From assembly GCF_049075655.1 (NCBI RefSeq), contig NZ_CP157522.1:628817-652816 (forward strand): a stretch of 24,000 nt of DNA, written 5' to 3'. Numbering within the stretch: the first letter of the stretch is position 1; each line of letters opens with the position of its first letter. Below the pieces are notes generated by a model. The model saw only the letters and a program-made list of their open reading frames with translations, was not told the DNA's origin and searched no databases. Made by a program: the position numbers and the translations under genes. This DNA is from Methanothermococcus sp. Ax23. GTDB taxonomy: Archaea > AGJL01 > Methanococci > Methanococcales > Methanococcaceae. Of the stretch, positions 422 through 23,269 are shown one piece after another.

Positions 422-530
422 TGAATATATAATATAATAAAATACATAATATAGTATTACAATATAATATAAAAAGGGATTTTATAACATTGGGAGCTCC
501 CATAAATAATTATATAACATAAAAAAAGAG

Positions 531-1394
531 GTGAGCTCTACGAAGTGGGAAGTTACTTTTGACGGCATAACTTATGAATGCATCAATTGCGGATATTGTT
601 GCAGTTGTAAAGATTGGAGAATATATTTATCATATTTTGATGCTTTGAAGTTAAAGGAATATGCAGAATATATTGAAAAGACAGAAGATATAAACGATTT
701 AGGATTCAATAGACGATTGAAGATAAATGAGAGGGGATGCGTCCTTTTGAATAAAGACTATTTGTGCAATATCCAGATTAAAAAAGGATATGAATTTAAA
801 CCTGCCATGTGTAGATTATTTCCATTTAGTTTTATGGTCAAATGGAATGGAGATTTACTTTTAATAATTAAACATTACTGTAATGGCATTAAAAAAGGAA
901 AATGCGATGATAAAATAATTAAACATGCCATAGAATGCTGTGAAGAGCTATATCTTGATGAACTAAATAAAATAAGACTTATGGGCGTGGAATCTTCTGC
1001 AAAAACCAGATTGGATAACGATACATTAATCACATGGGAGGAGAGGGAAGAGCTCGGAAGGTATATTTTTGATAGTGGTAGTTTGGATGAGCTCTCTGAA
1101 AAATGTAGAGATATTTTAAAACTTGATATTTCCAACGACATATCAAATATATATAATAATATGAAAAAATTAAATCTCAGCAGCGAAATATTTATTAAAA
1201 ATGAAGAAGAAATAATAAGATATTTAGGGGAACTTAATAAAAGGGAGCATTTTAGAAAACTAAATTTTAAAAAAGAAATATGTTATTTAATAAATATCGG
1301 GAAAGAATTGAGCGGATATAGGAACATATTCAAAGGTGAGGGAATTATCGATTCAAAGATTTTAAATTATGGCATATACAACGATATTTCGTGA
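531..1394 (+). CDS. YkgJ/UPF0153-type cysteine-cluster (CxxCxxCC) protein, putative Fe-S or Zn binding
   Basis: This is a 287-aa ORF with an N-terminal CINCGYCCSC motif and further Cys residues (C70, C79, C94), typical of the CxxCxxCC family. Only a GTG start at 531 is available in frame before the Cys cluster. A GAGGTG at 528-533 overlaps that GTG, so the exact start is uncertain. Confidence 0.65.
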   Translation: MSSTKWEVTFDGITYECINCGYCCSCKDWRIYLSYFDALKLKEYAEYIEKTEDINDLGFNRRLKINERGCVLLNKDYLCNIQIKKGYEFKPAMCRLFPFSFMVKWNGDLLLIIKHYCNGIKKGKCDDKIIKHAIECCEELYLDELNKIRLMGVESSAKTRLDNDTLITWEEREELGRYIFDSGSLDELSEKCRDILKLDISNDISNIYNNMKKLNLSSEIFIKNEEEIIRYLGELNKREHFRKLNFKKEICYLINIGKELSGYRNIFKGEGIIDSKILNYGIYNDIS

Positions 1395-1398
1395 AAAT

Positions 1399-2461: not shown

Positions 2462-2472
2462 GAACATATTTC

Positions 2473-3279
2473 CTAATTTTTTAGAATATTTGATATAATA
2501 CAAGATTCTTCTGTGAGCTCGATTTTCAATCCTATTTTTGCAGGAATTATATTAACATCAGTATTTTCCAATATATATTCGCACTCTTTAATAGGGTTGG
2601 TCATTTTTAATCCCATATGATTCATAACCACAATTTCTGGCTTTTTAGCCATTCCATTTAATAAATCTATTAAATCATTTGAACATAAATGGCCTTTTAT
2701 ACGCTCATTTTTTTTCCTGACAACATTTGCCACAAGAACCCTCACCCCATTGAAATCGTCAATTAACGATTCCATAAACTCAGTATCACTTGTGTATCCA
2801 ATATCTCCCTTATTGGTATTTACCCTTACACCAATTCCGAAAGGATCTCCGTGTTTTGTTTTTGTTGCTGTTAAATTAACATCCAAAATATCCACAGAAT
2901 CTTTTGGATTTAATAAATAAACTCTTTCAGGTTTTGATTGATGGTATTTAGATATTGCATTTTCATAATTTCCAAATCCTTCCAACACTGAAATATTGCT
3001 TATTATATAACCCCTCTTTTTTATCATACCGTTTGTCATAGCCTCTATTATTACCTCAGCATCAGTATAATGGTCAGGATGGTCGTGAGATACAAAAACA
3101 GCATTTGTATTCCATGGGGATATTTTTAACTCACTCATCCTCACCAGAGCTCCGGGACCTGGGTCAATATGTAATTTTGTTTTTTCAGTATGTATTCTAA
3201 AACCGCCCGTTCCCTTATTCTGTGAAATGGTTTCCCATCTACCTCCTCCAGCTCCTAAAAATATTATTTCAACACGCAA
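2473..3279 (-). CDS. MBL-fold metallo-hydrolase (beta-lactamase-like superfamily)
   Basis: This is a 268-aa ORF. It has the H-x-H-x-D-H motif as VSHDHPDHYTD after an N-terminal LGAGGG strand, with later His/Asp ligand candidates (TKHGDP, NHMG). Confidence 0.8.
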   Translation of the reverse strand: MRVEIIFLGAGGGRWETISQNKGTGGFRIHTEKTKLHIDPGPGALVRMSELKISPWNTNAVFVSHDHPDHYTDAEVIIEAMTNGMIKKRGYIISNISVLEGFGNYENAISKYHQSKPERVYLLNPKDSVDILDVNLTATKTKHGDPFGIGVRVNTNKGDIGYTSDTEFMESLIDDFNGVRVLVANVVRKKNERIKGHLCSNDLIDLLNGMAKKPEIVVMNHMGLKMTNPIKECEYILENTDVNIIPAKIGLKIELTEESCIISNILKN

Positions 3280-3360
3280 ATTACCACATCCGATAATTAT
3301 TTAAATTCAATAAAAATAAGGGATATTCAAATATAAATAAATTTTTAAAAAAATAATAAA

Positions 3361-3882
3361 TCAGTTATCTATATACTTAATATTTTCAAATATACCATTT
3401 ACTTCTACAATTATATAGGGGGATGTAATTAGTATGGTATTATTATTCTGAATACTTTTATTTATATAGACCATTATACTATTATTGCTATTTTTAACTA
3501 TCTTTGTTATTTCAATGTTATAATCAATGGGTTTTTTTCCACCATATATTGCTATAATGGTTTTATTTTTGCATTTATCAATATAATTATAATAATATTC
3601 TTTATCTTGCTTCCCATATTTTCCATATTCTACTATATCATATTCAATAGAGATGGGAAGTTTTGTTTTAACATTTGTATTATTTACATTAGTTGTAGAA
3701 TTATTGCTAAAATGTTCCAAATTGCGTTTATATGTGTTATAATCTCCCATTTCAGTGTTGGTGTTGGTATTCTGAATATTTTTAATATTCATCATATTAT
3801 TAAAATCTAAACAGGCAGATAAACACACCATTGAAAAAATTGAAAATAATACCAACAGTTTATTTGTCTTATAATTTCCCAT
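3361..3882 (-). CDS. Putative secreted lipoprotein, possibly with a PrcB-like C-terminal domain
   Basis: The ATG at 3882 gives MGNYKTNKLLVLFSIFSMVCLSAC, a signal peptide plus an LSAC lipobox-like motif. The C-terminal segment GGKKPIDYNIEITKIV...ILITSPYIIVEV resembles the PrcB_C pattern (G-x-x-x-GY-x-I-x-I ... sPy-x-iv-x-v). The linker is Asn/Thr-rich. The family assignment is tentative. Confidence 0.5.
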   Translation of the reverse strand: MGNYKTNKLLVLFSIFSMVCLSACLDFNNMMNIKNIQNTNTNTEMGDYNTYKRNLEHFSNNSTTNVNNTNVKTKLPISIEYDIVEYGKYGKQDKEYYYNYIDKCKNKTIIAIYGGKKPIDYNIEITKIVKNSNNSIMVYINKSIQNNNTILITSPYIIVEVNGIFENIKYIDN

Positions 3883-3895
3883 AGTATCCCAGTAT

Positions 3896-4702
3896 TCACT
3901 TTCCAAATCTTCTTTTTCTCCTTTGATAATCTCTAATAGACCTTAAAAAATCTATTTTTCTAAATTTAGGCCAGTATGTTTCACAAAAATAAAGTTCAGA
4001 ATAGCTCGATTGCCATATTAAAAAATTACTTATTCTTTCCTCACCAGAAGTCCTTATTATTAAATCAGGGTTTGGATATGGCAAATGGGACGTATATAAA
4101 TGTTTAGATATGGTTTCCATAGTTATATCTTCAACATCCATCTCATTATTTTTTATCTTCTGCCCAATCTTTTTTATAGCATCCACGAGCTCCTGCTGAC
4201 CTCCATAGGCAATTGCAACATTTACAAAATAATTATCATAATCCTTTGTTTTATTTTCCGCATAATTTATTGCTTCCCTAACTCTTTCTGGTAGGAGCTC
4301 TATTCTACCTATGGCTTTTATGCGTATTTTATATTTATGAATATCATTATCATCTGCAATTTTCCTAAATTCCTTTTCAAACAAATCCATCAATTCATCA
4401 ACTTCATCCTTTGGTCTATTAAAATTTTCCAGCGAAAATGAATACAATGTTATTATTTTTATATTTAAATCTACACACCATCGTATAAACTCCCTGACCT
4501 TTTTTGCACCAATGTAATGACCCCTTGTAGGTTTATCCCCCAGCATTTTTGCCATTCGCCTGTTGCCATCCATTATAACCCCTATGTGTTTTGGGATATT
4601 TTTTTTATTAATTTCCTTCTCAAGCATTTTCTCGTAAAATTTAAATATCCCCATATTATTAAAAAAATCGTAAATTTTAATGAAAAACAAATTCACCACC
4701 AA
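3896..4702 (-). CDS. uppS: Undecaprenyl-diphosphate synthase family cis-prenyltransferase
   Basis: It has the hallmark HIGVIMDGNRRMA motif, then RGH, LYSFSLENFNRP, the AIAYGG block and a C-terminal RTSGEERISNFLIWQ..YSELYF motif. The start is uncertain: 4702, or the internal ATG at 4654. Confidence 0.9.
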   Translation of the reverse strand: MVVNLFFIKIYDFFNNMGIFKFYEKMLEKEINKKNIPKHIGVIMDGNRRMAKMLGDKPTRGHYIGAKKVREFIRWCVDLNIKIITLYSFSLENFNRPKDEVDELMDLFEKEFRKIADDNDIHKYKIRIKAIGRIELLPERVREAINYAENKTKDYDNYFVNVAIAYGGQQELVDAIKKIGQKIKNNEMDVEDITMETISKHLYTSHLPYPNPDLIIRTSGEERISNFLIWQSSYSELYFCETYWPKFRKIDFLRSIRDYQRRKRRFGK

Positions 4703-4735
4703 ATCTTTAAATCTTTAAATTAAAGTTATTTAAAT

Positions 4736-5488
4736 TCAAATTCTAATATTTCCAGTTAAAAATTTTATTGCATTATAATATCTATCCCAAGTTCCATTTC
4801 TACTGGTATCTATAAATTTTATATTGTTTTTATTTAAGACCACTGCACCGCATCCTTCAGTACCGCAGATTAATCCCAAACATCTAAAAATTAAGTTCCC
4901 AGAGATTCCATCAGGAGCTACAATTATATTGCATCCATCTTTTAGATATTCCTCTATTAATATGCCCTTATGTTCTATTACCAAATTATTATATTTATTA
5001 TTGATACATTTAACAATATTTTCACATTCATCTATTGAACTGCTGATTTTTTCACTTCTACCGTAATCTGAAAGTCTTCCCGCCGATAAAATTCCGATTT
5101 TCGGATTTTTAGTGTTAGTATTAATATTAGCATTAGCATTTAAAAAATTTATTGCATATTCTATTATATTTATTTTATCATTAAAACTATTATTATCATC
5201 TACTTCGTCAATGCCAACAGGAGAAAGTAAAAAATAATCATTTGTAAATGGGTTTTTTAAAATCGATGCCCTATAAAATTTTCCAATATGTTCTTTTAAA
5301 TATGGTATAACATCAGAAGATGACAGCGTGCCTCTTATGGACCCATGCACTTTCTTTTTTACAGTTAATTCTACGAGCTCCTGCGGGTCATCTATTAATT
5401 CGACTTTTATATTTTCATCTATCAATTTATTGTATGCCTTTAAAATTTCCTCCTCATTGGTTTTGCCAATTCCCATCAAATATTTCAT
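4736..5488 (-). CDS. MtxX-like protein (methanogen marker protein 4 family, phosphate acyltransferase-like fold)
   Basis: This is a 250-aa ORF. The C-terminal APDGISGNLIFRCL motif and the overall layout recall the MtxX / PlsX-Pta-like family found in methanogens. It has an internal Asn-rich insert (NANANINTNTKN). The assignment is from memory of the family, not from a search. Confidence 0.5.
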   Translation of the reverse strand: MKYLMGIGKTNEEEILKAYNKLIDENIKVELIDDPQELVELTVKKKVHGSIRGTLSSSDVIPYLKEHIGKFYRASILKNPFTNDYFLLSPVGIDEVDDNNSFNDKINIIEYAINFLNANANINTNTKNPKIGILSAGRLSDYGRSEKISSSIDECENIVKCINNKYNNLVIEHKGILIEEYLKDGCNIIVAPDGISGNLIFRCLGLICGTEGCGAVVLNKNNIKFIDTSRNGTWDRYYNAIKFLTGNIRI

Positions 5489-5569
5489 AGTTTCCCTAAT
5501 ATATAATTTAATTATTCAATTTGTAGTTAAAAGGATAATTTAGAATTATTTTAATTTTATTATTTTATT

Positions 5570-5899
5570 TTAATTTTTTATATCCAACTTATCTCCTACC
5601 TTTAAATCCAAATTACAGCTCTTCACTTCAATCATTGCATTTGAATAAACATTTGATTTATAGGTTTTCCATGGTTTTAAATTCTTAACAATATCCACAA
5701 CTTTATTATCCCATAGAAAAATAACATCTATTGGATATTTCATAAAAAATGTGTGTATATGGAGCTTTCTTTTATTATAATAAAATATAAGCCCCTCATT
5801 ATGCCCTATATCTTTAAACATCAAACCAAAGGCTCTTTTTACAAAATTATCTGCAATACTCAAACGATATAGTTTATTATTTAATTTTACCTTTAACAT
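5570..5899 (-). CDS. DUF192 (UPF0127) family protein
   Basis: This is a 109-aa ORF containing the RAFGLMF motif and the size typical of DUF192. Its start overlaps the last 23 nt of the upstream peptidase gene. Confidence 0.65.
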   Translation of the reverse strand: MLKVKLNNKLYRLSIADNFVKRAFGLMFKDIGHNEGLIFYYNKRKLHIHTFFMKYPIDVIFLWDNKVVDIVKNLKPWKTYKSNVYSNAMIEVKSCNLDLKVGDKLDIKN

Positions 5900-6716
5900 A
5901 ATCTACCTTTTTATAAGGGGTCGGTATGTATTGAACAGATGGTCTTTGGCTCACCGGTTGCTTATATAAATCAAACAGTCTATAAACCTTATTTGGAACC
6001 TCTGTATTTACTGATATTCCCAATTCCCTCAACTTTTTAACAGTTAATGGATAATCATGAGTCCATTTACCTGTTGAAAGTGTTTCTGCAAGCTCTTTTG
6101 CTTTTTCATCAGGCATTTTATCCTTTAATAAATCATATACAAATTCTTTTACCTGATTTATTGCCTTTTTGGAAATATCTGCAAGTATTAATGTTTCATC
6201 GTCGAGCTCATCGATATACTTGGTATTTGCTGCATTTAATATAGATGCCGCAGGATACTGCCCTATTTGCGGGTCTACTGGACCCATTACTGCATTCTTA
6301 TCCATTATAATCTCATCTACCGCCAGGGATATTAAACTACCTCCGCTCATTGCATAGTGTGGTATTATTACGGTTGTTTTTGCCTTATGTTCCTTTAATG
6401 CCATGGCTATCTGCTCACTGGCAAGAACCAAACCACCCGGTGTGTGAAGTATTAAATCAATAGGCATGTCTTCGGGCGTCATTCTGATTGCCCTCAAAAC
6501 CTCTTCACTATCTTCTATATTTATAAATCTATATAGGGGTATTCCAAAAAGAGCCAGTTGCTCCTGCCTATGTATCATTACTATTACTCTAGCTTTTCTC
6601 TCCTTTTCCAATTCTTTGATACAATTATACCTTTGTAATAATTTCAGTCTAAACATGAATTGTGGATACATGAATAAAAATATAAAAAATATCCAAAAAA
6701 GACTTGATGGGTCCAT
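5877..6716 (-). CDS. Membrane-anchored Clp-fold serine peptidase (SDH / serine dehydrogenase proteinase family)
   Basis: This is a 279-aa ORF with an N-terminal hydrophobic helix (LFWIFFIFLFMYP). That is followed by VIVMIHRQE...DLILHTPGGLVLASEQIA...IPHYAMSGGSLISLA. The HTPGG and the MSGG nucleophile context are characteristic of the ClpP/SppA-like SDH family. Confidence 0.7.
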   Translation of the reverse strand: MDPSSLFWIFFIFLFMYPQFMFRLKLLQRYNCIKELEKERKARVIVMIHRQEQLALFGIPLYRFINIEDSEEVLRAIRMTPEDMPIDLILHTPGGLVLASEQIAMALKEHKAKTTVIIPHYAMSGGSLISLAVDEIIMDKNAVMGPVDPQIGQYPAASILNAANTKYIDELDDETLILADISKKAINQVKEFVYDLLKDKMPDEKAKELAETLSTGKWTHDYPLTVKKLRELGISVNTEVPNKVYRLFDLYKQPVSQRPSVQYIPTPYKKVDYVKGKIK

Positions 6717-6921
6717 AATTACACCACATGATATTAATGATTATTATACGCATCAAAATATATTTTATATTTATTAACCTTTATATTTATTAAATCAATA
6801 ATATATATTTAACAATTACCTATAAATACAGAGCACATAAATATATACACTACTTATGTATATATTATATACACATAATATTCATTATCATCATACATTA
6901 TTACAAAATTGAGGTGTTCTA

Positions 6922-8040
6922 ATGAACAGAATAAATATAAACACCATCAAAATAAAGCCATTATTATCAGAACCTTCAAAATTATCTGATGACGTTATGG
7001 CTTTAAAATATGTTATTATAGAACCTGCGGGATTTCCCATTAAAATAAATAGCGAGAACTTAAAAATCACTATTGACGACCCAAAATTATTCAACGTATA
7101 TGCGAGAGAGCAGTGGGAAGGCGAGAGTGTAAAAGAAGGAGATTATTTATTCGATAACACAATTATTCCTGATTATGCATTTAAAGTAATCTCGACATAC
7201 CCCAAAGAAGGAGGTATTATCACGCGAGACACTTTGTTTAAATTAAAAACAGCGAGAACCCACAACAGCAAAGAATTTAAAAAAGCAAGATTTGACGAAG
7301 TAATAGGTCAGGAAAATGCAAAGAAAAAATGTAAAATAATTATAAAATATCTCGAATGTCCAGAACTATTTGGAGAATGGGCACCGAAAAATGTATTATT
7401 TTACGGACCCCCTGGAACCGGGAAAACACTTCTAGCAAGAGCTCTTGCAACTGAAACATATGTTCCACTTTATCTAATAAAGGCAACGGAGCTCATAGGG
7501 GAACATGTGGGCGATGGTTCAAAGCAAATTCAAGACCTATACAATAAAGCATTAAATGATAGACCATGTATTATATTTATAGATGAGCTCGATGCCATAG
7601 CACTTAGTAGGCAGTATCAATCATTAAGGGGTGATGTCTCAGAGGTTGTAAATGCACTATTAACTGAGCTCGATGGAATACACGATAATGAAGGAATTGT
7701 AACAATTGCAGCCACAAACAACCCTGAAATGCTTGACAATGCTATAAGGAGTAGATTTGAAGAAGAGATAAAATTCGAGCTCCCAAATGATGATGACAGG
7801 TTGAAAATTATGGAGCTCTACACAGAAAAGATGCCCATAAAAGTTAAGGCAAACTTGAAGAAATATGTTGAAAAAACAAAAGGTATGAGTGGAAGGGATA
7901 TAAAAGAAAAATTCTTAAAACCTGCACTTCACAAGGCGATATTAGAGGACAGAGGAGTCATTGAAGAAAAAGATTTAGATGATGCATTGAATAAATTACA
8001 TGGAAATAAGAGAGAAATGCCTTTAAATCTATATGGATAA
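6922..8040 (+). CDS. Single-domain AAA+ ATPase with a Cdc48-N-like N-terminal domain (proteasome regulatory subunit / Cdc48 relative)
   Basis: GAGGTG (6911-6916) lies 5 nt upstream of the ATG. Motifs present: Walker A GPPGTGKT, Walker B IIFIDELD, sensor-1 ATN and the second region of homology (SRFEEEI). It is 372 aa. Confidence 0.9.
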   Translation: MNRININTIKIKPLLSEPSKLSDDVMALKYVIIEPAGFPIKINSENLKITIDDPKLFNVYAREQWEGESVKEGDYLFDNTIIPDYAFKVISTYPKEGGIITRDTLFKLKTARTHNSKEFKKARFDEVIGQENAKKKCKIIIKYLECPELFGEWAPKNVLFYGPPGTGKTLLARALATETYVPLYLIKATELIGEHVGDGSKQIQDLYNKALNDRPCIIFIDELDAIALSRQYQSLRGDVSEVVNALLTELDGIHDNEGIVTIAATNNPEMLDNAIRSRFEEEIKFELPNDDDRLKIMELYTEKMPIKVKANLKKYVEKTKGMSGRDIKEKFLKPALHKAILEDRGVIEEKDLDDALNKLHGNKREMPLNLYG

Positions 8041-8082
8041 TAAAATATAAAAATAATAAGATATAAAAAATAAAAATAATAC

Positions 8083-11000
8083 TTATCCCATTTTAAAGAA
8101 ATCTTCTATTTTTACCTGCTTATTCTTATCATTTTCAAATAAATTATCTATCCCTTCTTTAATTAATTCCAATCTCTGTTTTATGTAATCACTTGCGTTG
8201 TATTTTTCAGCCATTTTCTGAGAAACCTCCATATATTTTTCCACAGCTCCCTTTGAAACTGTTAATATCAATTTACTACCACATTTTGGACATGTTCCTT
8301 TTAATGGTATTCTTCTGAATTTTGCACCACATTTACATCTTACCCCCTGCCTTGAAAATGCTCTTAAATTTCCAATTAAATCAGGGACGAAATGAGATTG
8401 AATTACCTTTTCAGCAACGTCTCTTTCATCAGTTGCCCTTATTTTTTTCGCAACAGCCAATTGAGCCTCTGTTTTTTCAAGCATGGAACCTAATGTTTTA
8501 TATGCACAAACTAATGGTCCAACATCAACACTTGAAGTTTCATGGGTATATCCAATACCTTCATATTGGGATGGCGTGCCCAACCTATCCTCAACGGTTT
8601 CTATTAGCTGTTTAACCTCCTTAGGAGATGGCATTTCAAGTGTTTTTTCGTAGAATTCCAATGGATACTCCCAAACTGTATCCATGTTATGAACTTCTCC
8701 ATCAACTTCTTTTGGGTCAAGAAGTGTGGTTAATACAAGAGGTGCATCCATTTGCCCCCCTCTTTTATCTGGCAAAAATCGTTTGGAGAAGTTTAGAAAT
8801 GCGTCTAAAAGCAAGAATATACCGTCTTCGTCCCCATCACATTGGTATGTTTGAATATTTGAATTTATAACTATATTGTGATACTTCTTTGCATTTAGCG
8901 AATATACAAATTCATCCTCTGCCTTAACGATGGTTTTATTTCTAACTCTCACTATCCATCCATAACTGCAATCATTGGAATATATTGTTCGTCGGTGTTT
9001 ATGGAGTTCATACACATTCTGCTTTTTAGAAGATGTAAATCCAATTTCCTTAAAGAACATATGATAAAATATTGAAGTTATATTTAATGCATAAATCTTT
9101 GATATAGGAGCTCTTGTCCCTCTATTGTCATGATATTTTTTTACAATTCCATTTCTTTCATTTGCATTTTTATCAACTGTAATGTATGTTCTAATTCCAT
9201 ACTTTGCATTTAATAGAGTATCAACATCGAATAGCAATTCCTTATTTACACTATATACGCTTACTCTTGGCGTAGTTTTTAATGCTGTTCCATCCCCTGT
9301 GAAGTATGTTGAAAGCATCAATTTAACCTTTTCCTTTGGAAGTTTGAATATAAATGAAGGCACTCTTTTATTGTGTGCATTTGTTCCTGTCTTCAATATC
9401 TCAGTGAATAGCAAATATATTATTCTTGAACCAACGGTTATTTTTCCGTCTTTTTCATATATTCCAAACCCATCTCCAAATGCCTCATTTAATGCATCTT
9501 TAAGGTCTTTATTTACTTCCTCATCGTAATTTGAGAAGTTTATTTGATAAACGCTATTGGTCTTTCTTATGTAGCCCTCTGCTAAATAATAGCCAATTAT
9601 TTTTAATAACGGTTCGATTTTAATAATTCTTTTTATATTTACCTTGTCCCGTCTTACTGCAATAAATACATCCTTTGGAATATCAGATATATCTAATTCT
9701 GCATTTTTTAATATTTTTAACAGTAAATTCAATGGTATTGTGTCTTGTTTTATATATTTGGTGATATTTTTAATCAGTTTTCCTTTTCCCTTTTCATCCC
9801 TTTCTTTTAAACAGTCCTTTGGAATATTATTTTTTATCCAATCAGCTATTCCTCTAATTCTTATGAGCTCCCATATATGTTTATATTCTTCCTTTGAGAG
9901 CTCCGCCAACAAATCAATATATTCGATATCCTCTTCCTCAAAATCCAATTTTGGAATTAACATTAAGTCGTTTTCTTCAATATCCATTGCATTCTTTTTT
10001 ATAAATTTATCCTCTTTTTCATCATATATCATTACTGGATGGTCTGGCGTGGTTTCAAAACTTCTTCCTGTGTCGAGCTCTATATTTATAAGATGATTTG
10101 GAGATGGTATTTTTAAAACTTCCTCAATATCCGTTAAAACCATTTTTTTATTTAATGTGTCGAAGGAATAAACCTTAATATTTAGATTATTTTTTGGTTT
10201 ATTTTTAATATATGCCATATTTTCATAATACTCATTGTCATATAAATTGTAGAGCTCCTCAATTGTAATTCTTTTTACTTCCCCATTGATATTTACCAAT
10301 ATACTTGTATTTGGTGGGAAGCAGTTTCTTCTCTTTGATGCGTGGAAATATGGGTGAGCATATCCAACATTTGCCTTACAATATCCAATAATTCTACCTA
10401 CCATTCCCGCAGAAGTGTGCGGAGCCATTCCTATTACTAAATGTCCTATTAAGTCCTCTTTATTCTTTACATTGTAAAATCTGTCTGTTTTATAGAATTT
10501 TTCAAGTAAATCATCAATAAACTTCGTTGCATTTACAAAATACTCTGCACAAGAATTTGGAATGATTACATCCTGCACTTTTAATTCTATCACTTGATTT
10601 TCATCAGTTATAGGATTACCGTATATATCTTTATCATATCCTAATTCCTTCAATTTTTCAATGGAAACATTTATTTCACAAGGTTTAAAATGAGTAATAG
10701 GCACATCTGTGCAGTCAAACCTAAGGGTTCCATCCTTAAACACAAATACATCATTCATTGCCCTTAATATACCCTTTTCAAGTGGTTCAACTATTTTATC
10801 CTTTGAAGTCATACCTTTAATGCACTTTACATCGCCCGGTTTATTTATTTTTAGATTTTCTAATGCCTTATACCAATAATCCTTTAACGGGAGCTCTATC
10901 CTATTGGGTCCCGATAATTCCACATGAGCTCCACAAAATGGACATTTGTTATATAAACTTATTTTTCCACATTTTGGGCATTTTCCAGAATATACCTCTA

Positions 11001-13014
11001 CTGTATCAGTTTTTCCTTCCTCTACTGCTTTATTTATTAATCTAACAACGTTACCTGCATTTCCTATTGGGAAAAGACCATTTACTGGCGGCTTCATTTT
11101 TCTTGCAGCAGCTTTTTCAGGTCGCCCCATACGAGCTCCCACATAAACATAGGCATTTCTTTTAATCTCAAATGGTGATAGTAAATTTATAAAGTGCATG
11201 GCATTTTTTGATTTATTATATATTTCCGTTATATCCTTTATTAAATCTTGATTTTTTTCAACATCGTATCCTAATGAGTATAACAACGGATAATATTCAT
11301 CTATTGATATATATTTATTGATATTATTATTTTCTTCCTTATTCAATACATTATGACAGCATCCTATTAACTCCAAAACTCTCTTTGCCTTTGTATTTTC
11401 CTCATACTTTGGATTGTATGGGATTAACCATGCGTCATTTTCTTCATCATAGTATCCATTCAATAGATAGTGTCTAAGCAACAATATGTCTTCCTTTGAT
11501 ACATCATGCCAGTAGTAAGTATATCTTGGATGTAGTGGCGTTTCAGTTTCTATTGCAAATTTTACAGCTTCTTTATGGCTTGGATTATTTATAAATTCCT
11601 TTTTATAACATATATTCTTTGAAATTAGTATTTTTTCATACCACTCCTCGCACCAACTGCTTGGAAGTATTGAGTGGTTGTTTTCAAGGAAATCTCCAAA
11701 ATTAACTAAAATATCTCCTAAGAATAGTATCTCTTCCACAGAGTCCCTATATTCCAATGCCTTTTCAATTGTGTCTATTTTTATTACATTTCCATTTTTT
11801 AATTTCACAATAGGCGGTTCTATGCTATCTACTGGGACAACACATGTTGCCTTTCCCGGTCTTTCAGTTTTTAACTGAGTTCCAATAGCCATAAAGTCAT
11901 CTACCAAATACATAAGTGCAGGATGGAATCCATCCGTTGCAAATCCTGTATTTCTGCTTCTCCCATACCTTAATCTAAACCCCCCTGCTTTTGAAGGATG
12001 GGCAAAAACTGGTCTTCCCGCAATTACTTCCCCTATAAACTTTGTAATTGCTTCGATTTCAACATCGTCGTATAATTTACTATATTCTTCAAATTCTTCA
12101 TCATCCACTTCATTGACTTCATCGTCTAAGTTTTCCTTTTCGTTTTCATTTCCTTTTTCATCTTTTTTGCCCTTTAACTCCTTTAACCAATCCCATCCTT
12201 CAATTCCAAGTTTATCAACGTGCCTTAAAATTTTTGGAGCTTTTAAAAGCACACCTTCAACAAGTGCAAGGAGAGCTCCCCCTCTTATCTGATTAGTTTC
12301 TACTCTATCTAAATCCCTATGTCCGCTGACTTCAACATCGTCTGTGGCTTCCCCTGTAATTTCTATTGATATATTTTTTACTGCTGTTCTTATTTCCTCA
12401 GCTTTTGGAGAATACTGAAAGCTACCTACTTCTGATTGATATAAATCAACCTCTTCTACATATCTTTCTATTTCATCATCATTAGGTAAATATCTATTTA
12501 ATCCCATGTTTTTTCGGACATAATCACCAACAAGAACGGCTAGTGCCTGAGCTGTCCCTCCTGCACTTCTAATTGGTCCTGCAAAATATATTGCTAAATA
12601 CTCACTTCCATCCTTGTTCTTTTTTATTTTAACATGGGCAATACCTTCAAGGGGAGCTGCCACAATTCCTTCTGTGATTATTGCTAAGGCTGTTCTTACA
12701 GCCTGTTCCGCCAGTTCTTCCCTATTTCCACTGTTTCCAAATTTTCCCTCAACTATTTCTTTTGCAATCTCCAATGCAGCAGGTTCTTTACCGAGCTCAG
12801 AAACTAACTCCCTAATTCTCTCAGACACTCCTTTTGGACCTACAAGCCCTTCAACTCTATCTGCCATATCCTTCGCAAGTGGAATTTCTACAAAATCAGA
12901 TACATCATATCCTTTTTTTCTACACTCTTCCGCAATATTGTAAATTTCCTTAACATTCTCTAAAATATTTTTAAAATAAGATTCCATATTCTTAGAGGAG
13001 CTCACATGAAACAT
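8083..13014 (-). CDS. polC: DNA polymerase II (PolD) large subunit DP2, interrupted by an intein
   Basis: This is a 1643-aa ORF. The N-terminus ([16 protein letters not shown]), [14 protein letters not shown], the Zn modules (CPKCG..CPFCG and CKCG..CPKCG) and the catalytic KRRN|CDGDEDG motif are DP2 hallmarks. Removing the 494-aa insert leaves 1149 aa, a normal DP2 length. Confidence 0.95.
8842..10323 (-). mobile_element. Intein with a LAGLIDADG homing-endonuclease domain, inserted in the DP2 KRRN/CDGDED catalytic motif
   Basis: I read the junctions directly. AAC(N)-TGC(C1) lies at 10321-10323 (minus strand), and CAA(Q494)-TGT(C+1) lies at 8842-8844 / 8839-8841. Block A is [10 protein letters not shown] and block B is TTPDHPV. 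The LAGLIDADG motifs are [11 protein letters not shown] and [11 protein letters not shown]. The C-terminal block is [22 protein letters not shown], followed by Cys+1. Confidence 0.9.
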
Positions 13015-13130: not shown

Positions 13131-13374
13131 GGGCATGAGGACTATAGCCCGCCTTCTGTAATTTCGGCGACATTCAGCTAAGCGCTAAATGCTTGCACCC
13201 GTGCAGAATGGCCTCGTTTCACCGGCTCCTTGAAACTCCTCAATTTTCATATCATAGTCATCTGTTTCAAGGCCGTGTCGTTTCTATACACCATTCAATC
13301 CTTCTCAGGATATTATGCACATAATGGGTGGGCGGAGCTTCCTCCTAAATGGGAGTCGCCAGTCCTCTTGCCCA
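13131..13374 (-). ncRNA. rnpB: RNase P RNA (archaeal, type-M-like, about 244 nt)
   Basis: This is a GC-rich island with no ORF. The minus-strand RNA starts GGGCAAGAGGACU and ends AGUCCUCAUGCCC, forming P1. GGCGAC pairs with GUCGCC (P2). The CR-I-like element is GGAGGAAGCUCCGCCCACC. The CR-V-like element UUACAGAAGGCGGGCUAUAG is able to form P4 with CCGCC. GGUGAAACG and GGGUGCAAGC elements are also present. Confidence 0.85.
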
Positions 13375-13615: not shown

Positions 13616-16574
<2,959 letters not shown>

Positions 16575-18365: not shown

Positions 18366-18454
18366 TTACATCAAACCTGAGCTCCTTTTCTCTCAGGCTA
18401 TCATTGACTGCATAATATGATGGTGGTTTGGATGATGTATTGTTTTTAGGTTTG

Positions 18455-18485
18455 GAACAATATTATATATATGCAAAAATAATCC
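18455..18485 (-). promoter_or_regulatory. Candidate rRNA operon promoter (TATA-like box)
   Basis: The minus strand reads GGAUUAUUUUUGCAUAUAUAUAAUAUUG. It lies between the channel-gene terminator and the 16S leader and is the only strong TATA-like element upstream of the processing stem. The position is plausible but no transcription start is known. Confidence 0.35.
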
Positions 18486-18490
18486 TTCAA

Positions 18491-18523
18491 AAAATTAACA
18501 ATAACAATAAAAAAATAAAAAAA
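18491..18523 (-). terminator. T-rich tract after the K+ channel gene
   Basis: Directly after the TGA stop (18524-18526) the minus strand reads UUUUUUUAUUUUUUAUUGUUAUUGUUAAUUUU. Confidence 0.45.
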
Positions 18524-19540
18524 TCACTTATTCTTTACAATCTTTTCCAGATTATCAAGTTGTTCCGTAGTTCCAAACGCATAAAGCACATCATTAGAGG
18601 AGATTATAATATTGGGCGGTGGATTTGTTATCAACTCGTTGTCTTTTTTAATACCTATTATAGTAGCTCCACTTTCCTGCCTTATTCTCGTTTCAGATAA
18701 ACTCTTACCTGCCAGTCGAGAGCCTTCTTCAATCTTTATCTTTCTTATCTCTAAATCTTCATCATATTCATATTTAGCTATGGACATAAAAGTAGATACA
18801 AAATCAAGTATATCTGGCTTTAATGCAAGTTCCGCCATCCTTAAACCCCCTATAACATAAGGAGAAACTACCCTATCTGCCCCTGCAATTAAGAGCTTGT
18901 CCATGGCCACTCTTTCATCGGCTTTTGCAATAATATAAAGATTTGGATTAAGTCTTTTTGCAGATAAGGTGATATATACATTATCAGAGTCTCTTGAAAC
19001 TGTTGAAATCAGGCCTTTTGCTTCTTTTATCCTTGCCTTTAATAATGTATCATCAAGGGTGGCATCACCCACAATATAATTAAAATTCGGATTATCTTCG
19101 AGCTCATTTTCCAAAAGTTCCGCATTATTATCTATGACAACATATTTTGCTCCAGATTTTTCAAGTTTATCTGCAACAACTTTTCCACTTCTACCATATC
19201 CGCAGATAATATAATGATTTTTTAAATATTTTATTCTTTTATCCATGTTTCTCATCTGATTTGTTTTTTTAAAATAACCGCCTATAAAAAATTCAGCAAT
19301 ATTTCCCAAGGCATACAATCCTATGCCGACGCCAAATAATATATACATGGCTGAAATGAGTTTCCCCAGTTCTGTCTTTGGCACATAATCTCCATAACCT
19401 ACTGTTGAAATAGTGACTATTGAAAAATACAGTGCATCCAATGGCCTTAATCCTTCTATATTCATCATAACTATTGAATAGATTACAATCGCAACTCCCA
19501 TTACACCTATACTTAGTTTTATCCTATCTATAACTTCCAT
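18524..19540 (-). CDS. MthK-type potassium channel (2-TM pore plus RCK/TrkA-N and TrkA-C domains)
   Basis: It has the selectivity filter TVGYGD (STVGYGDYVP), two TM helices and an RCK Rossmann motif (IICGYGRSG). A C-terminal TrkA-C-like segment follows. The ORF track extends to 19621, but the ATG at 19540 (MEVIDRIK...) gives about 338 aa, similar to MthK. Confidence 0.9.
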   Translation of the reverse strand: MEVIDRIKLSIGVMGVAIVIYSIVMMNIEGLRPLDALYFSIVTISTVGYGDYVPKTELGKLISAMYILFGVGIGLYALGNIAEFFIGGYFKKTNQMRNMDKRIKYLKNHYIICGYGRSGKVVADKLEKSGAKYVVIDNNAELLENELEDNPNFNYIVGDATLDDTLLKARIKEAKGLISTVSRDSDNVYITLSAKRLNPNLYIIAKADERVAMDKLLIAGADRVVSPYVIGGLRMAELALKPDILDFVSTFMSIAKYEYDEDLEIRKIKIEEGSRLAGKSLSETRIRQESGATIIGIKKDNELITNPPPNIIISSNDVLYAFGTTEQLDNLEKIVKNK

Positions 19541-19653
19541 CTTACCACATATAATACATATAAATCCAAATACATCTATGAAAATATAAATAATAATGAT
19601 GTATAAATTAATTACTACCAACTATAAATTAATAAATATAATCAACATAAAAT

Positions 19654-21213
19654 ATGAAGATGATATTTATGGACATAGGCATAATTGATATAAAAGGTTC
19701 ATTACCCTGTTTTGAAAGTTTTGGGGGCCTACCTACAAAAATAATAGACGAAAACAACACTTCAGAAATTAAAGACTTAAACATGCTGATTATACCCGGT
19801 GGGAGTTTAGTTGAAAGCGGTTCATTGAACGAAAAATTAAAAAAACATATAATAGAATTTGATGGAATAATACTTGGAATATGTAGTGGATTTCAAATAT
19901 TATCTGAAAAAATAGATATTGGTAGAAAAAGTCCAGTTCCCATTGTTAAAGAAGGTTTGGGATTGTTGAATGTTGAATTTTCACCACTTATTTGCACAGA
20001 CGAAGTTAATTTTGAATTAAAAAATGACACTATTTTTGGAAAAAGCAATGATGCTGGAATGGGATTTCATTGCCACACATACGGCAATATAAAAATAACC
20101 AACAAAAAAACAAAACAACTATGTATTTCAAAAATTAAAAAATTAAACTACAAAATGGTTGGAGATGTAGATATCATATCCGGTGTTTATCATAAAAATA
20201 TCTTTGGAACAATGGTGCATGGATTTTTAGATAACGAAAATATAAAAGAAAACTTGCTTAATTCGTTAAATATCGACGAAAATGAACGAGAGTTGATATT
20301 TAAAAAAAATAAGGACATAACTCAAAAATTAAAATCTAAATCTATAATAAACACCAATACTAATATGGTAAATAGTAAGGTTAATATTAATAATAGGAGC
20401 TCCCCTTCAAAACATTCAAAAGAAACTAATGAAAAAAAAGGATTGATTCTTCTAGCAACTGGCTCCGAAAGTGGAAAAACTTTTCTAACAACATGTATAG
20501 TATCAAAATTGGATAAAAAAACATTTGTAGCAAAAATAGGTCCCGATGTGAGAGATATTGTTCCATCACTTTATATTTTAAGAGAACCTATGTCAAAATA
20601 CAGCAGTATAAAAATCGCAGATAGGGGCTGGTGTGATGTTGATGATTTTTTAAAATTTGTTAAAAATTCAGATTATACATATTATATTATCGAAGGAGTG
20701 ATGGGTGCATTTACAGGAGCATTGAACAAAAAAAATTATAGTGGAGCCGAAATATCGAAAATATTGGGATTCCCTGTATATATTGTATCATCATGCAGTA
20801 AAAGCGGTATTGAAGGAGCATTTGTGGAAAGTTTTGGATATTATTCATTATTAAAAGAGATGGGAGTTAATGTTAAAGGAATAATATTAAATAAAATTTA
20901 TAACTTTGAAGTATTTGAGAAGGTTAAAAAAATAGGAGATGAAATTGGATTACATATAATAGGAGTTGGAAAAGCAAAAATGGATAAAAGAGGTCTGATG
21001 CCAGAGGTTGAGATAGATTATGAAAACTTCTGTAAAAATGCCATGGATTTGGATATAAAGCTCGAAATTCCGAAAATTGAAATAGATAATAATAACGATA
21101 ACAATGCAAAATTAGAGGAAAACCTTTGCATTTCATCACCCTCCGCTCCGCTCCAAGAAGATAAAGATTTTGAATATTATTTAAAAAAATGGATTAATAA
21201 TCATTATTTTTAA
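19654..21213 (+). CDS. CobQ/CbiA-type amidotransferase with inverted domain order: N-terminal GATase, C-terminal DTBS-like P-loop ATPase
   Basis: Residues about 1-215 carry LIIPGGS...GICSGFQIL (Cys nucleophile), [17 protein letters not shown] and [12 protein letters not shown], matching the CobB/CobQ-type GATase pattern. An Asn/Lys-rich linker spans about 216-260. Residues about 262-450 carry [15 protein letters not shown] (P-loop), [22 protein letters not shown] and [15 protein letters not shown], matching the CbiA/CobQ N-terminal ATPase-domain pattern. Confidence 0.7.
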
Positions 21214-21244
21214 GAATTATAACTTATAACTATCAAGGGATAGT

Positions 21245-23269
21245 ATGGATGAAAAAAAGATAGAGCAGTTAAAACCATATATTACCAACTATATAAGAAA
21301 CTTCCACAGTGATGACATTATATCAGAAAAGGAAAGGGTAGTAATAGACTTGGAGAAATTATATAATTATGGAATAGTGGATTTTATAGAATATATTTAT
21401 GAAAATCCATACGATGGATTAAAGATTTTAGAAGATGCATACGTGGAAGCATACTACGCACTAAAAAATGAAAATCCAAACTGCTCCATCACAATAAAAA
21501 ACATACCCGAAGTATTCAAAAAATACAACAACAAAACATTAACAATTAAGGATATTAAAAGCAGTACATTGGGAAAACTTATAGAATTTGAAGGAATTAT
21601 TGTATTAGCAACTAAAATAAAATCAATATTAAAAAAAGCAGTATATGTATGCAATAATTGTGGAAATAGGGTTGTTGTAAATATCGATAATCCCTATGAA
21701 TATAATCCAGAGTCTAAATCATGCACCAATGAAAAATGTAATGGAATATTACAGATAGTAGAAAACGAATCGGAGTATATTGACTTCCAGGAATTAAAAG
21801 TTCAACAACCGCTGGATTTAATGGATGACCCAGAGGAACCTCCAAAATATATATCTGTATTTTTAGAAAATTCGCCGGGCATATTCTGCGGAAGGGTAAA
21901 AATAATAGGAATACCCATCAAATACCAAAGTAGTAAAAAACTACCAATATATGACATATACATAAGAGGGCTAAATTGCGAAATAATAGAAAATAAATTA
22001 GAAAGTGAGCTCACCGAAGATGACATTGAAAAAATAGAAAAAGTTGCCAAACACCCAAAAGTGCTGGATATATTATCAAATGAACTCATCCCAGAAATAA
22101 AAGGATATGAAACTATAAAGAAGGCGATATTTTTACAGCAGATAAAAGGAGTTAAAAAAGGGAATAAAAGAGCCGACAGCCACATACTTTTAATTACCGA
22201 CCCGGGGATTGGAAAAAGTGTTATGCTCAGAAAAATAGCGGAGCTCCCGGGAAACCTATATGGTTCTGTAACCACGGCATCAGGAGTTGGTTTAACCGCA
22301 GCAGTTGTTAGGGAAAAAACTGAAATTGGGGATGATACGTGGGTTATAAAACCAGGTTTGTTGGTTAAAGCAAACAAGGGGACCGCATGTATTGACGAGC
22401 TAACTGTTAATAAGGACCTTCAAAGTTTTGTTTTAGAGGCTATGGAAAGCCAAACAATTCACATTAATAAAGGGGGTATAAATACAAAGCTTCCAGCAGA
22501 GTGTGCAATTCTTGCTGCATGCAACCCAAGATGGGGAAAATTTGACCCCAATGTTTCAATACCTGAACAGATAAACATACCTGCCCCTATGTTAAGTAGA
22601 TTTGATATAATATTTCCAATAAAGGATGAAGTAGATAGGGCAAAGGACAAAGACATAGCAAAACATATTATCAATATCCATAGAAAATATTTGAAGAAGG
22701 ACGAAGGAGACATAAAAGTCGATAAAGAGACTAAAATTAATGGTGTTGAAATCGACGATGAATTTATCATAAAATATATATTATATGCTAGACAGAAAAA
22801 GCCAATTATATCAAAAAATGCAGAGGATATTTTAGTAGAATACTACACAAACATGAGGAAGAGCTCTATACAAATAACCGCAAGGCAGCTTGAAGCTGCG
22901 ATTCGACTTGCTGAAGCTCATGCAAAGGTGAAATTAAAGGATGTTGTGGAAGAAGAGGATGCAGAAGAGGCAATAAATATAATAATGGAATCACTAAAAG
23001 AGATAGCCTATGATCCAGAAACTGGTATGATTGATATAGGGAAGATTACGGGAGAATCAAACAAGGATAAAAATAAAATGAAGGAGATATACACAATTAT
23101 TAAAAAACTCTCAGAAAAGAACAACGAGGGATTGGTGTTATTCGAAGATATATTGGAAGAAACTAAAAAGAAGGGAATGGATGAAGAAGAAACCGAGAAC
23201 ATCATTAAAAAATTATTAAAGAGGGGGGACATCGACGAACCAAGGAATGGAAAATACCGAATTATATAA
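21245..23269 (+). CDS. mcm: MCM replicative helicase paralogue
   Basis: This is a 674-aa ORF. Motifs present: N-terminal C4 Zn finger (CNNCGN...CTNEKCNG), Walker A TDPGIGKS, ASGVGLTAAVV, Walker B ACIDELTV, sensor-1 LAACNP, Arg finger SRFDIIF, sensor-2 ITARQLEAAIRLAEAHAKV, and a C-terminal winged-helix-like tail. Confidence 0.9.
   Translation: MDEKKIEQLKPYITNYIRNFHSDDIISEKERVVIDLEKLYNYGIVDFIEYIYENPYDGLKILEDAYVEAYYALKNENPNCSITIKNIPEVFKKYNNKTLTIKDIKSSTLGKLIEFEGIIVLATKIKSILKKAVYVCNNCGNRVVVNIDNPYEYNPESKSCTNEKCNGILQIVENESEYIDFQELKVQQPLDLMDDPEEPPKYISVFLENSPGIFCGRVKIIGIPIKYQSSKKLPIYDIYIRGLNCEIIENKLESELTEDDIEKIEKVAKHPKVLDILSNELIPEIKGYETIKKAIFLQQIKGVKKGNKRADSHILLITDPGIGKSVMLRKIAELPGNLYGSVTTASGVGLTAAVVREKTEIGDDTWVIKPGLLVKANKGTACIDELTVNKDLQSFVLEAMESQTIHINKGGINTKLPAECAILAACNPRWGKFDPNVSIPEQINIPAPMLSRFDIIFPIKDEVDRAKDKDIAKHIINIHRKYLKKDEGDIKVDKETKINGVEIDDEFIIKYILYARQKKPIISKNAEDILVEYYTNMRKSSIQITARQLEAAIRLAEAHAKVKLKDVVEEEDAEEAINIIMESLKEIAYDPETGMIDIGKITGESNKDKNKMKEIYTIIKKLSEKNNEGLVLFEDILEETKKKGMDEEETENIIKKLLKRGDIDEPRNGKYRII

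Follow-up and report, generated by a model that had tools for sequence, protein, structure and literature searches.

Highly Iterated Palindromes (HIPs) were recognized in cyanobacteria about 30 years ago, and their origin is disputed between a repair ratchet, selection for chromosome structure and a function as an uptake or recombination tag. HIP1, GCGATCGC, is 15- to 300-fold over-represented and reaches about 0.3-2.7 copies per kb (PMC4390886, PMC5861425). Besides HIP1, "alternate HIPs" have been described, namely GGCGCC in Calothrix PCC 7103, GCSGC in Cyanothece PCC 7822 and RCCGGY in Oscillatoria PCC 10802, each of which co-occurs with a methyltransferase of that specificity; Elhai explained them as the by-product of a repair "ratchet" that is directed by methylation and depends on a G-mC step (PMC4390886). 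For HIP1, Xu et al. argued for selection instead (PMC5861425), and recent preprints suggest that it plays a part in uptake or recombination that depends on methylation (10.1101/2024.09.10.611283; 10.64898/2026.06.24.733823). Here we analyze the palindromic hexamer GAGCTC in a stretch of 24,000 nucleotides (the window) from the chromosome of the archaeon Methanothermococcus jasoni Ax23T (CP157522; 1,662,948 bp, 31.85% GC), whose average nucleotide identity to M. okinawensis IH1 is 85% (PMC12955612). The loci compared with it are labeled L0xx where needed, e.g. L012 for GCA_054002535.1 and L017 for the IH1 plasmid pMETOK01.

GAGCTC is in excess in all reading frames and between genes

The window holds 34 copies of GAGCTC, and a recount found every start position listed in a previous inspection of its letters (the sequence-only reading) to be exact. 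Dinucleotide-preserving shuffles of the window contained 1.88 copies on average and 7 at most, and the Markov expectation is 1.9 copies at order 1, 2.9 at order 2 and 7.7 at order 3. The maximal-order (order-4) Markov model that the same reading had proposed as a check predicts 25 copies against the 34 observed, but this control is circular and therefore uninformative, because 34 of the 46 GAGCT words and 34 of the 46 AGCTC words are GAGCTC itself. When the rRNA operon is left out, the remaining 18.8 kb (31% GC) contain 33 copies against 1.29 expected (P about 1e-34). Overall, the excess is 13- to 26-fold, and about 25-fold outside the operon. The RNA genes contain 1 copy for 1.4 expected, so that the single site inside the 23S rRNA (14920..14925) is consistent with chance.

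Only the complete palindrome is affected. None of the nine classes of one-off neighbors is enriched in the window (GAGCTA, GAGCTT and GAGCTG occur exactly four times each, as had been estimated), and in a table of NAGCTN words one of the 16 flank combinations, GAGCTC, is raised 19-fold. Relative to synonymous-codon shuffles, GAGCTC is the top hexamer (z = 23) and all runners-up are words overlapping it. The sites are spaced in a Poisson-like manner (coefficient of variation 0.83-1.32 in loci of 25 kb or less). We found no signal of regular or clustered spacing beyond this, and an apparent surplus of pairs 33-39 bp apart in the window was not significant (P = 0.08).

The excess is also independent of reading frame. 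Sixteen coding sequences are annotated in the window, and we compared them to 2000 synonymous-codon shuffles in which every protein and the overall codon usage are preserved; this null is conservative, since the usage of GAG, CTC, GCT and AGC is itself inflated by the motif. The coding sequences contain 31 copies against 1.74 expected. Their phases are those given by the sequence-only reading: 21 are GAG-CTC (Glu-Leu), 6 are xGA-GCT-Cxx (hereafter the Ala phase) and 4 are xxG-AGC-TCx (Ser-Ser), with shuffle expectations of 0.95, 0.42 and 0.36, respectively; in none of the phases was the observed number reached in any shuffle. GAG-CTC thus makes up 21 of the 55 Glu-Leu dicodons (5/6 in the AAA gene and 6/17 in the DP2 gene, the same shares as counted before), whereas CTC accounts for only 11 of the 453 Leu codons that do not follow Glu. 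Expressed as occupancy of the contexts that the proteins permit, the values are 21/55 for Glu-Leu, 6/7 for the Ala phase and 4/21 for Ser-Ser. The six coding sequences without GAGCTC offer almost no permissive amino-acid context, four of them none at all, which together with the occupancy indicates that sites fall where the protein sequence allows.

Non-coding DNA (1535 bp, 25% GC) contains three copies where 0.05 are expected (P = 2e-5). Two of them, at 494..499 and 18379..18384, had been recognized as non-coding before. The third, at 533..538, had been read as a Ser-Ser coding site, which is probably wrong: relatives have ATG or TTG at the codon aligned with GTG 545, after the conserved AAAGAGGTG, and judging from this alignment the CxxCxxCC gene probably begins at GTG 545 and not at GTG 531. 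With this start, site 533 overlaps the Shine-Dalgarno sequence (GAGGTGAGCTC) and the spacer, probably within the 5' untranslated region, and brings the non-coding count to three. The site is also present in IH1 (GGGACT in the lineage L013), and its arrangement, GGTGAGCTC, also precedes two genes of pMETOK01. Site 494 lies upstream of the same gene within the 12-bp palindrome TGGGAGCTCCCA; IH1 has GAGCTC at the equivalent place, in a spacer that is AT-rich and otherwise poorly conserved. Site 18379 is located about 110 nt upstream of the 5' end of the 16S rRNA, in the leader or promoter region, and is conserved in L013. At the other end of this 16S-tRNA-23S-5S operon, an RNase P RNA gene (13133-13371) directly follows the 5S rRNA and adjoins the DP2 gene.

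The predominance of Glu-Leu sites (21 of 31 in coding sequence) might suggest that GAG-CTC is preferred as a codon pair or in translation, or that the encoded peptides are under selection. Such a preference would confine the excess to one coding frame, but the Ala-phase, Ser-Ser and non-coding copies all exceed their expectations (6 against 0.42, 4 against 0.36 and 3 against 0.05, respectively). Further, the word reads as a perfect palindrome, no Leu codon is rarer than CTC elsewhere, and relatives with the same Glu-Leu dipeptides never use GAG-CTC for them. Since the other phases and non-coding DNA are enriched, we reject this explanation and give it next to no credence. Both outcomes that the sequence-only reading had named as refuting its own observation, an observed/expected ratio (O/E) near 1 under a Markov model and disappearance of the excess after conditioning on codons, failed to appear.

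Distribution among relatives, an intein and a plasmid

The excess occurs in some, but not all, close relatives of Ax23. In M. okinawensis IH1, the syntenic locus contains 28 copies of GAGCTC in 21 kb, a second locus, unlinked and at a distance of about 240 kb, 21 in 21 kb (against 1.2 expected) and the plasmid pMETOK01 (26.8% GC) 13 in 14.9 kb (0.63 expected). Also enriched are the metagenome-assembled genome (MAG) GCA_027074775.1 / WAKW01 (31 in 25 kb), a lineage from ENA metagenomes, L014 (21 in 15.7 kb, O/E 23), and the Logan lineage L018/L019 (14 in 14-15 kb). The O/E is 12-23 in five loci other than the window, and the density pooled over 136 kb from five genomes and one plasmid is 1.2 per kb, within the HIP range of 0.3-2.7. 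Genomes without enrichment are GCA_054002535.1 (L012; 1 copy in 15.7 kb), the SZUA and SCGC MAGs (0-1 copies each), Methanofervidicoccus sp. A16 (1 for 2.2 expected) and Methanotorris igneus (0 for 1.9 expected). L012 lacks the excess although it shares with Ax23 a protein identity of 93% in DP2, 91% in the protease and 87% in the AAA protein, so the trait switches on and off between relatives with 87-93% protein identity. In a neighbor-joining tree of the AAA and protease sequences, its distribution is patchy: of the enriched genomes (Ax23, IH1 and L013; L014; L018/L019) and those without enrichment, L012 is sister to the Ax23/IH1/L013 clade, and L014 and L018/L019 are distant.

Some of the records labeled M. 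okinawensis or Methanothermococcus sp. (the SZUA MAGs and SCGC AD-155-E23; L002, L003, L004 and L006) encode a proteasome-activating nucleotidase (PAN) that is 95-96% identical to that of Methanofervidicoccus sp. A16, but has an identity of only about 81-83% to the IH1 and Ax23 proteins. By PAN identity these records are Methanofervidicoccus-like and their genus label is probably wrong.

The excess extends to mobile DNA. The intein of DP2 (amino acids 911-1385, nucleotides about 8860-10284, 1.4 kb) carries five copies of GAGCTC, a count already made in the sequence-only reading; it is absent in L018 and present in L019, whose loci are otherwise near-identical. On pMETOK01, whose proteins are singletons at 90% clustering, 7 of 52 Glu-Leu dicodons are occupied, compared with 21 of 55 in the window, and this lower occupancy would fit a shorter residence in the host. 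Two of the plasmid sites have the form AGGTGAGCTCATG, immediately before start codons. The unlinked IH1 locus, the plasmid and the five intein sites together argue that the cause acts in trans and genome-wide. The proposal of the sequence-only reading that it acts at the DNA level, and not through codon-pair preference, is supported by all three phases and by the non-coding DNA, the intein, the plasmid and the on/off pattern among relatives.

The plasmid also encodes a DISARM-like or type IIG module (2640-12637), in which an Eco57I/DrmMI-like methyltransferase and an SNF2 helicase that has a PLD nuclease domain are accompanied by an 801-aa protein of unknown function. We considered this methyltransferase as a cause of the excess and dropped it: it belongs to an enzyme family with asymmetric sites, and as an IH1-specific singleton at 90% clustering it is not the shared cause of a trait common to several lineages. 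A toxin-antitoxin segment beside the integrase gene of the plasmid is bracketed by the 14-mer GAGCTCCGATAAAA (positions 44 and 12662). A scan of viral contigs with the pMETOK01 integrase, for viruses or proviruses of the host, gave no match.

Motif width differs between the enriched lineages. In L014, 12 of the 21 sites are the octamer GGAGCTCC, of which about 0.02 would be expected by chance (estimated from composition), and four are CGGAGCTCCG; 32 of the 42 flanking bases are C (P = 1e-18). In Ax23 there is a weak preference for C at position +1 (23/68, P = 0.002) and no other extension of the motif. These flanks suggest that the width of the motif varies between lineages in the way the specificity of a recognition protein would.

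Several other palindromes are scarce in the coding sequences of Ax23 when compared to the synonymous shuffle: GATC (2 against 40), GTAC (4 against 28), CTAG (7 against 25), ACGT (8 against 23) and GCGC (0 against 7.6). This implies several restriction-modification pressures; Ax23 therefore shows classical palindrome avoidance, with GAGCTC as an exception. Weaker surpluses of other palindromes were seen in relatives: CTGCAG in L018/L019 (7 against 1.2), CCCGGG at the IH1 locus L022 (4 against 0.2, at 926, 1410, 5197 and 5497, two of them as CCCCGGGG), and in L005/L008 both CCATGG (7 against 0.9) and GGCC (O/E about 4).

The core tetramer AGCT bears on whether the excess is an artefact of assembly, vector contamination or repeats, or a passive rebound after avoidance of AGCT was lost. 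Genomes without enrichment do avoid AGCT (O/E 0.03-0.5); the ratio is 0.03-0.07 in the Methanofervidicoccus-like loci (L005, L008, L020), and AGCT is halved in L012 and in Methanotorris igneus (L021). In Ax23, AGCT outside GAGCTC is near expectation (about 30 against 38), as a rebound would have it. However, relaxed avoidance restores AGCT to its expectation and does not raise one of 16 flank combinations 19-fold. As for artefacts, the excess is found in independent assemblies (two complete genomes, MAGs, and contigs from ENA and Logan), and the sites occupy unique conserved coding positions, not repeats. On the grounds of this replication and of the NAGCTN table we rejected these explanations, which we hold to be extremely improbable.

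Gain, retention and loss of sites

Codon alignments of orthologues from enriched and non-enriched genomes show that the sites arose by point substitution. At GAGCTC positions, non-enriched orthologues read GAATTA, GAACTY or GAGTTR, and GGGCTC in the Ala phase. Between Ax23 and L012, about two of the six bases differ at Ax23 sites, the aligned genes being 82-90% identical overall.

In the CxxCxxCC gene (forward strand), the GAG-CTC sites at 1050..1055 and 1089..1094 are both present in IH1, and L013 has GAGCTT and GAACTC, respectively. In the metallo-beta-lactamase-fold gene (reverse strand), GAG-CTC at 2515..2520 occurs in Ax23 only (IH1 GAACTT, L013 GAGTTA, L014 GAATTA), and the Ala-phase site at 3147..3152 is common to IH1, L013 and L014. 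The undecaprenyl-diphosphate synthase gene (reverse strand) has two GAG-CTC sites: that at 4295..4300 is shared with IH1 and L013 (L014 GATTTA), and that at 4187..4192 with IH1, L013 and L014 having GAAATT (Glu-Ile) here, so that, from the alignment, an amino-acid change or an allele exchange is involved. Two further reverse-strand GAG-CTC sites lie in a 250-aa gene of unknown function (5375..5380; also in IH1 and L014, GAACTC in L013) and in the SDH-type protease gene (6204..6209; also in IH1 and L013, GAATTA in L012, GAGCTG in L018 and other residues in farther relatives).

The AAA (PRS2) gene, on the forward strand, has an Ala-phase site at 7439..7444 that is shared with IH1, L013 and L018/L019; the aligned non-enriched sequences are GGGCTC or GGGCTT and thus lack AGCT. 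Its five GAG-CTC sites are at 7489..7494 (also in IH1, L013 and L018/L019; GAACTY or GAGTTR in non-enriched genomes), 7585..7590 (also in IH1 and L013; GAATTA, GAGTTA or GAACTG in other relatives), 7666..7671 (Ax23 only; L013 GAACTG, IH1 GAATTA), 7777..7782 (also in L013; IH1 GAACTC) and 7813..7818 (also in IH1, L013 and L014; GAACTC or GAACTG in non-enriched genomes). L014 has a site one base out of register with that at 7777, at 7778, and hence in another codon phase, which indicates an independent origin at the same spot.

All sites of the DP2 gene (8083-13014) are on the reverse strand. Within the intein, the Ala-phase site at 9108..9113 is found in Ax23 only (AAATTC in IH1, L013, L012 and L014; ATGCAC in L019). 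The GAG-CTC sites of the intein are at 9865..9870 (also in IH1 and L014; L013 GAACTC), 9898..9903 (also in L013 and L014; IH1 and L012 GAACTC), 10075..10080 (also in IH1 and L013) and 10252..10257 (also in L013 and L014; L012 GAATTA). GAG-CTC occurs in the extein at 10891..10896 (also in L013 and L014; IH1 and L012 GAACTT), and elsewhere in DP2 at 12793..12798 (also in L013; IH1 GAACTT). The remaining Ala-phase sites are at 10926..10931 (also in L014 and L018/L019; GAACTC in IH1 and L012; Ala in Ax23, Thr in some relatives), 11133..11138 (also in IH1 and L018/L019; L013 GGGCTC) and 12273..12278 (present in all enriched lineages; L012 GGGCAT), and a Ser-Ser site at 12998..13003 is shared with IH1 and L013.

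Beyond the rRNA operon, there is a GAG-CTC site in a TrkA-type K+ channel gene (19100..19105, reverse strand) and a Ser-Ser site in a CobQ-like amidotransferase gene (20397..20402, forward strand). The MCM gene (forward strand) has GAG-CTC at 22007..22012 and 22241..22246 and a Ser-Ser site at 22861..22866, for which L012 reads AAATTA, GAACTT and AAGTTC, respectively.

Some gains changed the protein. At site 9108, the step from AAATTC to GAGCTC comprises three AT-to-GC transitions and includes an exchange of Ile to Ala; other sites with amino-acid exchanges are 4187 and 10926. Turnover of sites is ongoing. We polarized gains and losses within the trio of Ax23, IH1 and L013 by means of the third genome. 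Ax23 shows 4 gains and no loss, L013 2 gains and 7 losses, and IH1 has 3 private sites. The sites lost in L013 (533, 1050, 1089, 4187, 5375, 9865 and 11133) now read GAACTC in three cases and GAGCTT in one, both C-to-T type changes, and from these alignments the MAG lineage L001/L013 appears to be losing sites.

Once present, sites are retained more often than control words. Of the sites found in less dense genomes, 11/13, 11/12 and 6/8 are kept in Ax23, compared with 7/25, 13/31 and 3/24 control Glu-Leu dicodons (P = 0.002-0.005). Conservation above control is asymmetric, as the extra sites of Ax23 are not conserved above control, and in L012 none of 15 Ax23 sites is conserved, compared with 6 of 20 control dicodons (P = 0.03). 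DP2 is a recombination mosaic with two intein alleles common to several lineages: identity over the 3' half of the intein is 93% between Ax23 and L012, 78% between Ax23 and L013 and 93% between IH1 and L013, and one 600-nt segment is 94% identical even to the distant L014. Because recombination confounds the polarization, we do not claim that L012 purged its sites, as opposed to never having had them.

The nature of the substitutions bears on very-short-patch (VSP) repair as the sole cause. In this explanation, the methylated inner C would deaminate fast at 65-73 °C and a context-specific T:G-to-C:G enzyme of the Vsr/Mig type would over-correct, so that GAGTTC and GAACTC become GAGCTC and change in the opposite direction is blocked. 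VSP repair shifts the abundance of CCWGG in E. coli, and Mig.MthI accompanies a GGCC 5-methylcytosine (m5C) methylase in a thermophilic methanogen (Methanothermobacter). The commonest alternative allele at our sites, GAACTC or GAACTT, is a central transition away, and GAACTC and GAGTTC are depleted in the Ax23 window (3 against 9.2 expected). In IH1 and L013, however, they are not depleted (7-8 against about 8 expected, scaled). The pool of GARYTC words from which such an enzyme could draw is too small, since base frequencies predict about 20 in the window and 39 are seen (34 GAGCTC, 2 GAATTC, 1 GAACTC and 2 GAGTTC). Many gains required changes at positions 1 and 6, including transversions (GAATTA or GAGTTA to GAGCTC), and the L014 octamer requires that outer positions be driven as well. 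We therefore find it improbable that such repair acted alone.

Retention above controls is what direct selection would predict. The sites, methylated or not, would then serve the cell, each with a small benefit, by binding a nucleoid, segregation or recombination protein or as a kin tag for uptake or recombination, similar to an uptake sequence or Chi. The amino-acid changes tolerated to make sites, the exclusive enrichment of the complete palindrome and the L014 octamer, which looks like the footprint of a dimeric binding protein, are consistent with this, as is the exchange of DNA between lineages evident from the mosaic DP2 and the intein alleles. HIP1 has likewise been argued to be under selection (PMC5861425), and, in methylated form, to promote transformation (10.1101/2024.09.10.611283; 10.64898/2026.06.24.733823). 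On the other hand, the Poisson-like spacing gives no sign of regular placement, the plasmid is filled too, L013 shows a net loss and the trait is dispensable, as L012 demonstrates; a function of about 2000 sites that is lost unreplaced in a sister lineage fits strong selection poorly. Gains in several steps, through intermediates that are not themselves enriched, would also be slow if only the complete site were selected. On balance, direct selection is possible, but we have doubts that it is the main cause.

A candidate recognition protein and the comparison with known systems

The explanation we favor, though with somewhat less than even confidence, is a trans-acting, lineage-specific protein that recognizes the palindrome, probably a SacI-type methyltransferase, in combination with directional fixation of its sites. 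A trans-acting recognition protein is suggested by the frame independence, the reach into non-coding DNA, the intein and the plasmid, the on/off pattern among relatives, the lineage-specific motif width and the restriction to the complete palindrome. A dimeric DNA protein with sequence specificity, present in some lineages of Methanothermococcus and missing in others, would recognize GAGCTC; most probably it would be a Type II-like DNA methyltransferase with the specificity of SacI (GAG(m)CTC). Where this factor is present, point substitutions that complete the hexamer would be preferentially fixed and complete sites would resist loss, so that the motif would come to fill the tolerated positions: Glu-Leu, Arg/Gly-Ala-X and Ser-Ser contexts, Shine-Dalgarno spacers, promoter regions, the intein and the plasmid. 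The directional step might be a choice of strand guided by methylation or a bias in mismatch correction between the numerous copies of the genome, akin to Elhai's ratchet, or else a preferential uptake or recombination of tagged DNA. By analogy, methylation of the inner C of GAGCTC would create the G-mC step that Elhai's model requires. The existence of the methyltransferase, the methylation of GAGCTC and the nature of the bias are what we infer from these observations.

Several points weigh against a methyltransferase with directional fixation. In the about 230 kb of loci examined, we found no gene for methylation, restriction or repair at GAGCTC. When all open reading frames in the chromosomal loci among them were scanned for motifs, only a THUMP RNA methyltransferase and LarC came up, and the sole DNA methyltransferase seen, a type IIG / DrmMI-like enzyme, is encoded by pMETOK01 and unique to IH1. 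Recognition sites of restriction-modification systems are normally avoided, and GATC, GTAC, CTAG and ACGT are indeed avoided in the same window, as restriction sites usually are. To our knowledge, Methanococcales have neither MutS nor MutL, and therefore Elhai's mechanism cannot apply literally. The gains include transversions at outer positions (TTA to CTC), which lie beyond a deamination-only repair. Direct selection predicts the retention above controls equally well, and recombination between lineages, as in the mosaic DP2, blurs the direction of gains and losses. The candidate causes named by the sequence-only reading (a target of modification, a signal for binding or uptake, and a bias in repair or conversion) are the hypotheses debated for HIP1, and our data do not separate them. 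In a more specific and more tentative form, for which we would not claim more than a minor share of the probability, a horizontally mobile palindrome-specific methyltransferase, coupled to a methylation-guided bias of mismatch correction or gene conversion, would have rewritten about 2000 positions in each genome within the time of species divergence in a polyploid archaeon without MutS and MutL. If this were true, it would be the first system of the HIP type in Archaea.

The genome of IH1 has been public for years. In the full-text literature, we nevertheless found no report of an over-representation of GAGCTC or GGAGCTCC, of iterated palindromes in Archaea or of a Methanothermococcus methylome, and the species description of Ax23 mentions neither restriction enzymes nor methyltransferases (PMC12955612). 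The statement of the sequence-only reading that no description of the signal is known thus holds for Archaea and for this sequence, but a counterpart has been described in the form of HIP1 and the alternate HIPs (PMC4390886, PMC5861425).

The trait is suited to a search for its cause. Sister genomes of 1.66 Mb in which it is on, off or of wider motif form a natural experiment, of which the plasmid and intein being "ameliorated" are a part, and the responsible gene should stand out in a comparison of presence and absence. PCR-free R10.4.1 nanopore reads exist for Ax23, from which methylation at GAGCTC can be called (PMC12955612). If the excess does result from a methyltransferase with biased fixation, comparative genomics and a nanopore methylome could find the causal genes and hence the long-unknown origin of iterated palindromes. 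Practically, about one SacI site per 0.6-1 kb affects the cloning and transformation of these methanogens. The rewriting of Glu-Leu, Ala and Ser-Ser contexts, and of some amino acids, biases analyses of codon usage and dN/dS, and GAGCTC provides a sharp oligonucleotide signature for the binning of MAGs and for dating horizontally acquired DNA.

Among known systems, restriction-modification of the SacI type shares the word itself, a palindromic hexamer typical of homodimeric Type II enzymes, and GAGCTC-specific m5C methyltransferases exist, e.g. M.Sgr13350I (PMC11275837). Genomes with such a system normally avoid its site, however, and here it is hugely enriched (13- to 26-fold). VSP repair (CCWGG/CTWGG in E. 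coli) and Mig.MthI resemble our case in that a methylated palindrome is protected or regenerated after C-to-T decay, and the deamination neighbors are depleted in the window. The VSP effect in E. coli is modest, in contrast to the size of the GAGCTC excess, in which outer positions and transversions are driven as well.

DNA uptake sequences (DUS) of Neisseria, uptake signal sequences (USS) of Haemophilus and Chi likewise occur at about one copy per kb throughout the genome, at permissive positions within genes and with lineage-specific specificity. A molecular drive through biased uptake or recombination is possible for them, and exchange of DNA between lineages is seen here. Yet both uptake sequences and Chi are asymmetric words of 8-12 nucleotides that show effects of orientation, and the former often occur as pairs in terminators. 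The GAGCTC motif is symmetric and 6-8 nucleotides long, lacks the asymmetric 9-12-mer form and inverted terminator pairs of DUS and USS, and lies mostly within coding sequence.

Of the phenomena described so far, those closest to GAGCTC by analogy are HIP1 and, above all, the alternate HIPs that occur sporadically in cyanobacteria. Like HIP1, GAGCTC is a short, GC-rich, perfect palindrome that is found within genes in all frames as well as between genes, is at least 15-fold over composition and the top word of its length, has spread by point substitution, is conserved above control words, is extended palindromically in some genomes (L014) and is absent in some lineages. It differs from HIP1 in occurring in Archaea, in its sequence, in being a hexamer in most lineages, in its host, a thermophile of 31% GC, and in its much patchier distribution, which is on or off within a genus. 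The host is also polyploid. For HIP1, the methyltransferases DmtA and DmtC are known, whereas none of GAGCTC specificity was seen in the loci examined here, and a long-range quasi-periodicity (10-90 kb) has been reported, compared with Poisson-like spacing at short range in our loci of 25 kb or less.

With the alternate HIPs, GAGCTC has in common a sporadic, lineage-specific palindrome surplus (O/E above 15) and a central G-C step, and it is in sporadicity and hexamer size that the match is best. It departs from them in being common to several species and a plasmid and in standing beside a strong avoidance of other palindromes, and the MutS/L-based ratchet proposed for them cannot operate as described in this host. 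By analogy, we therefore regard GAGCTC as a palindrome of the HIP type whose domain of life and word are both new and whose on/off distribution is unusually informative; its independent occurrence in another domain and with another sequence indicates that the phenomenon is general and not a cyanobacterial oddity.

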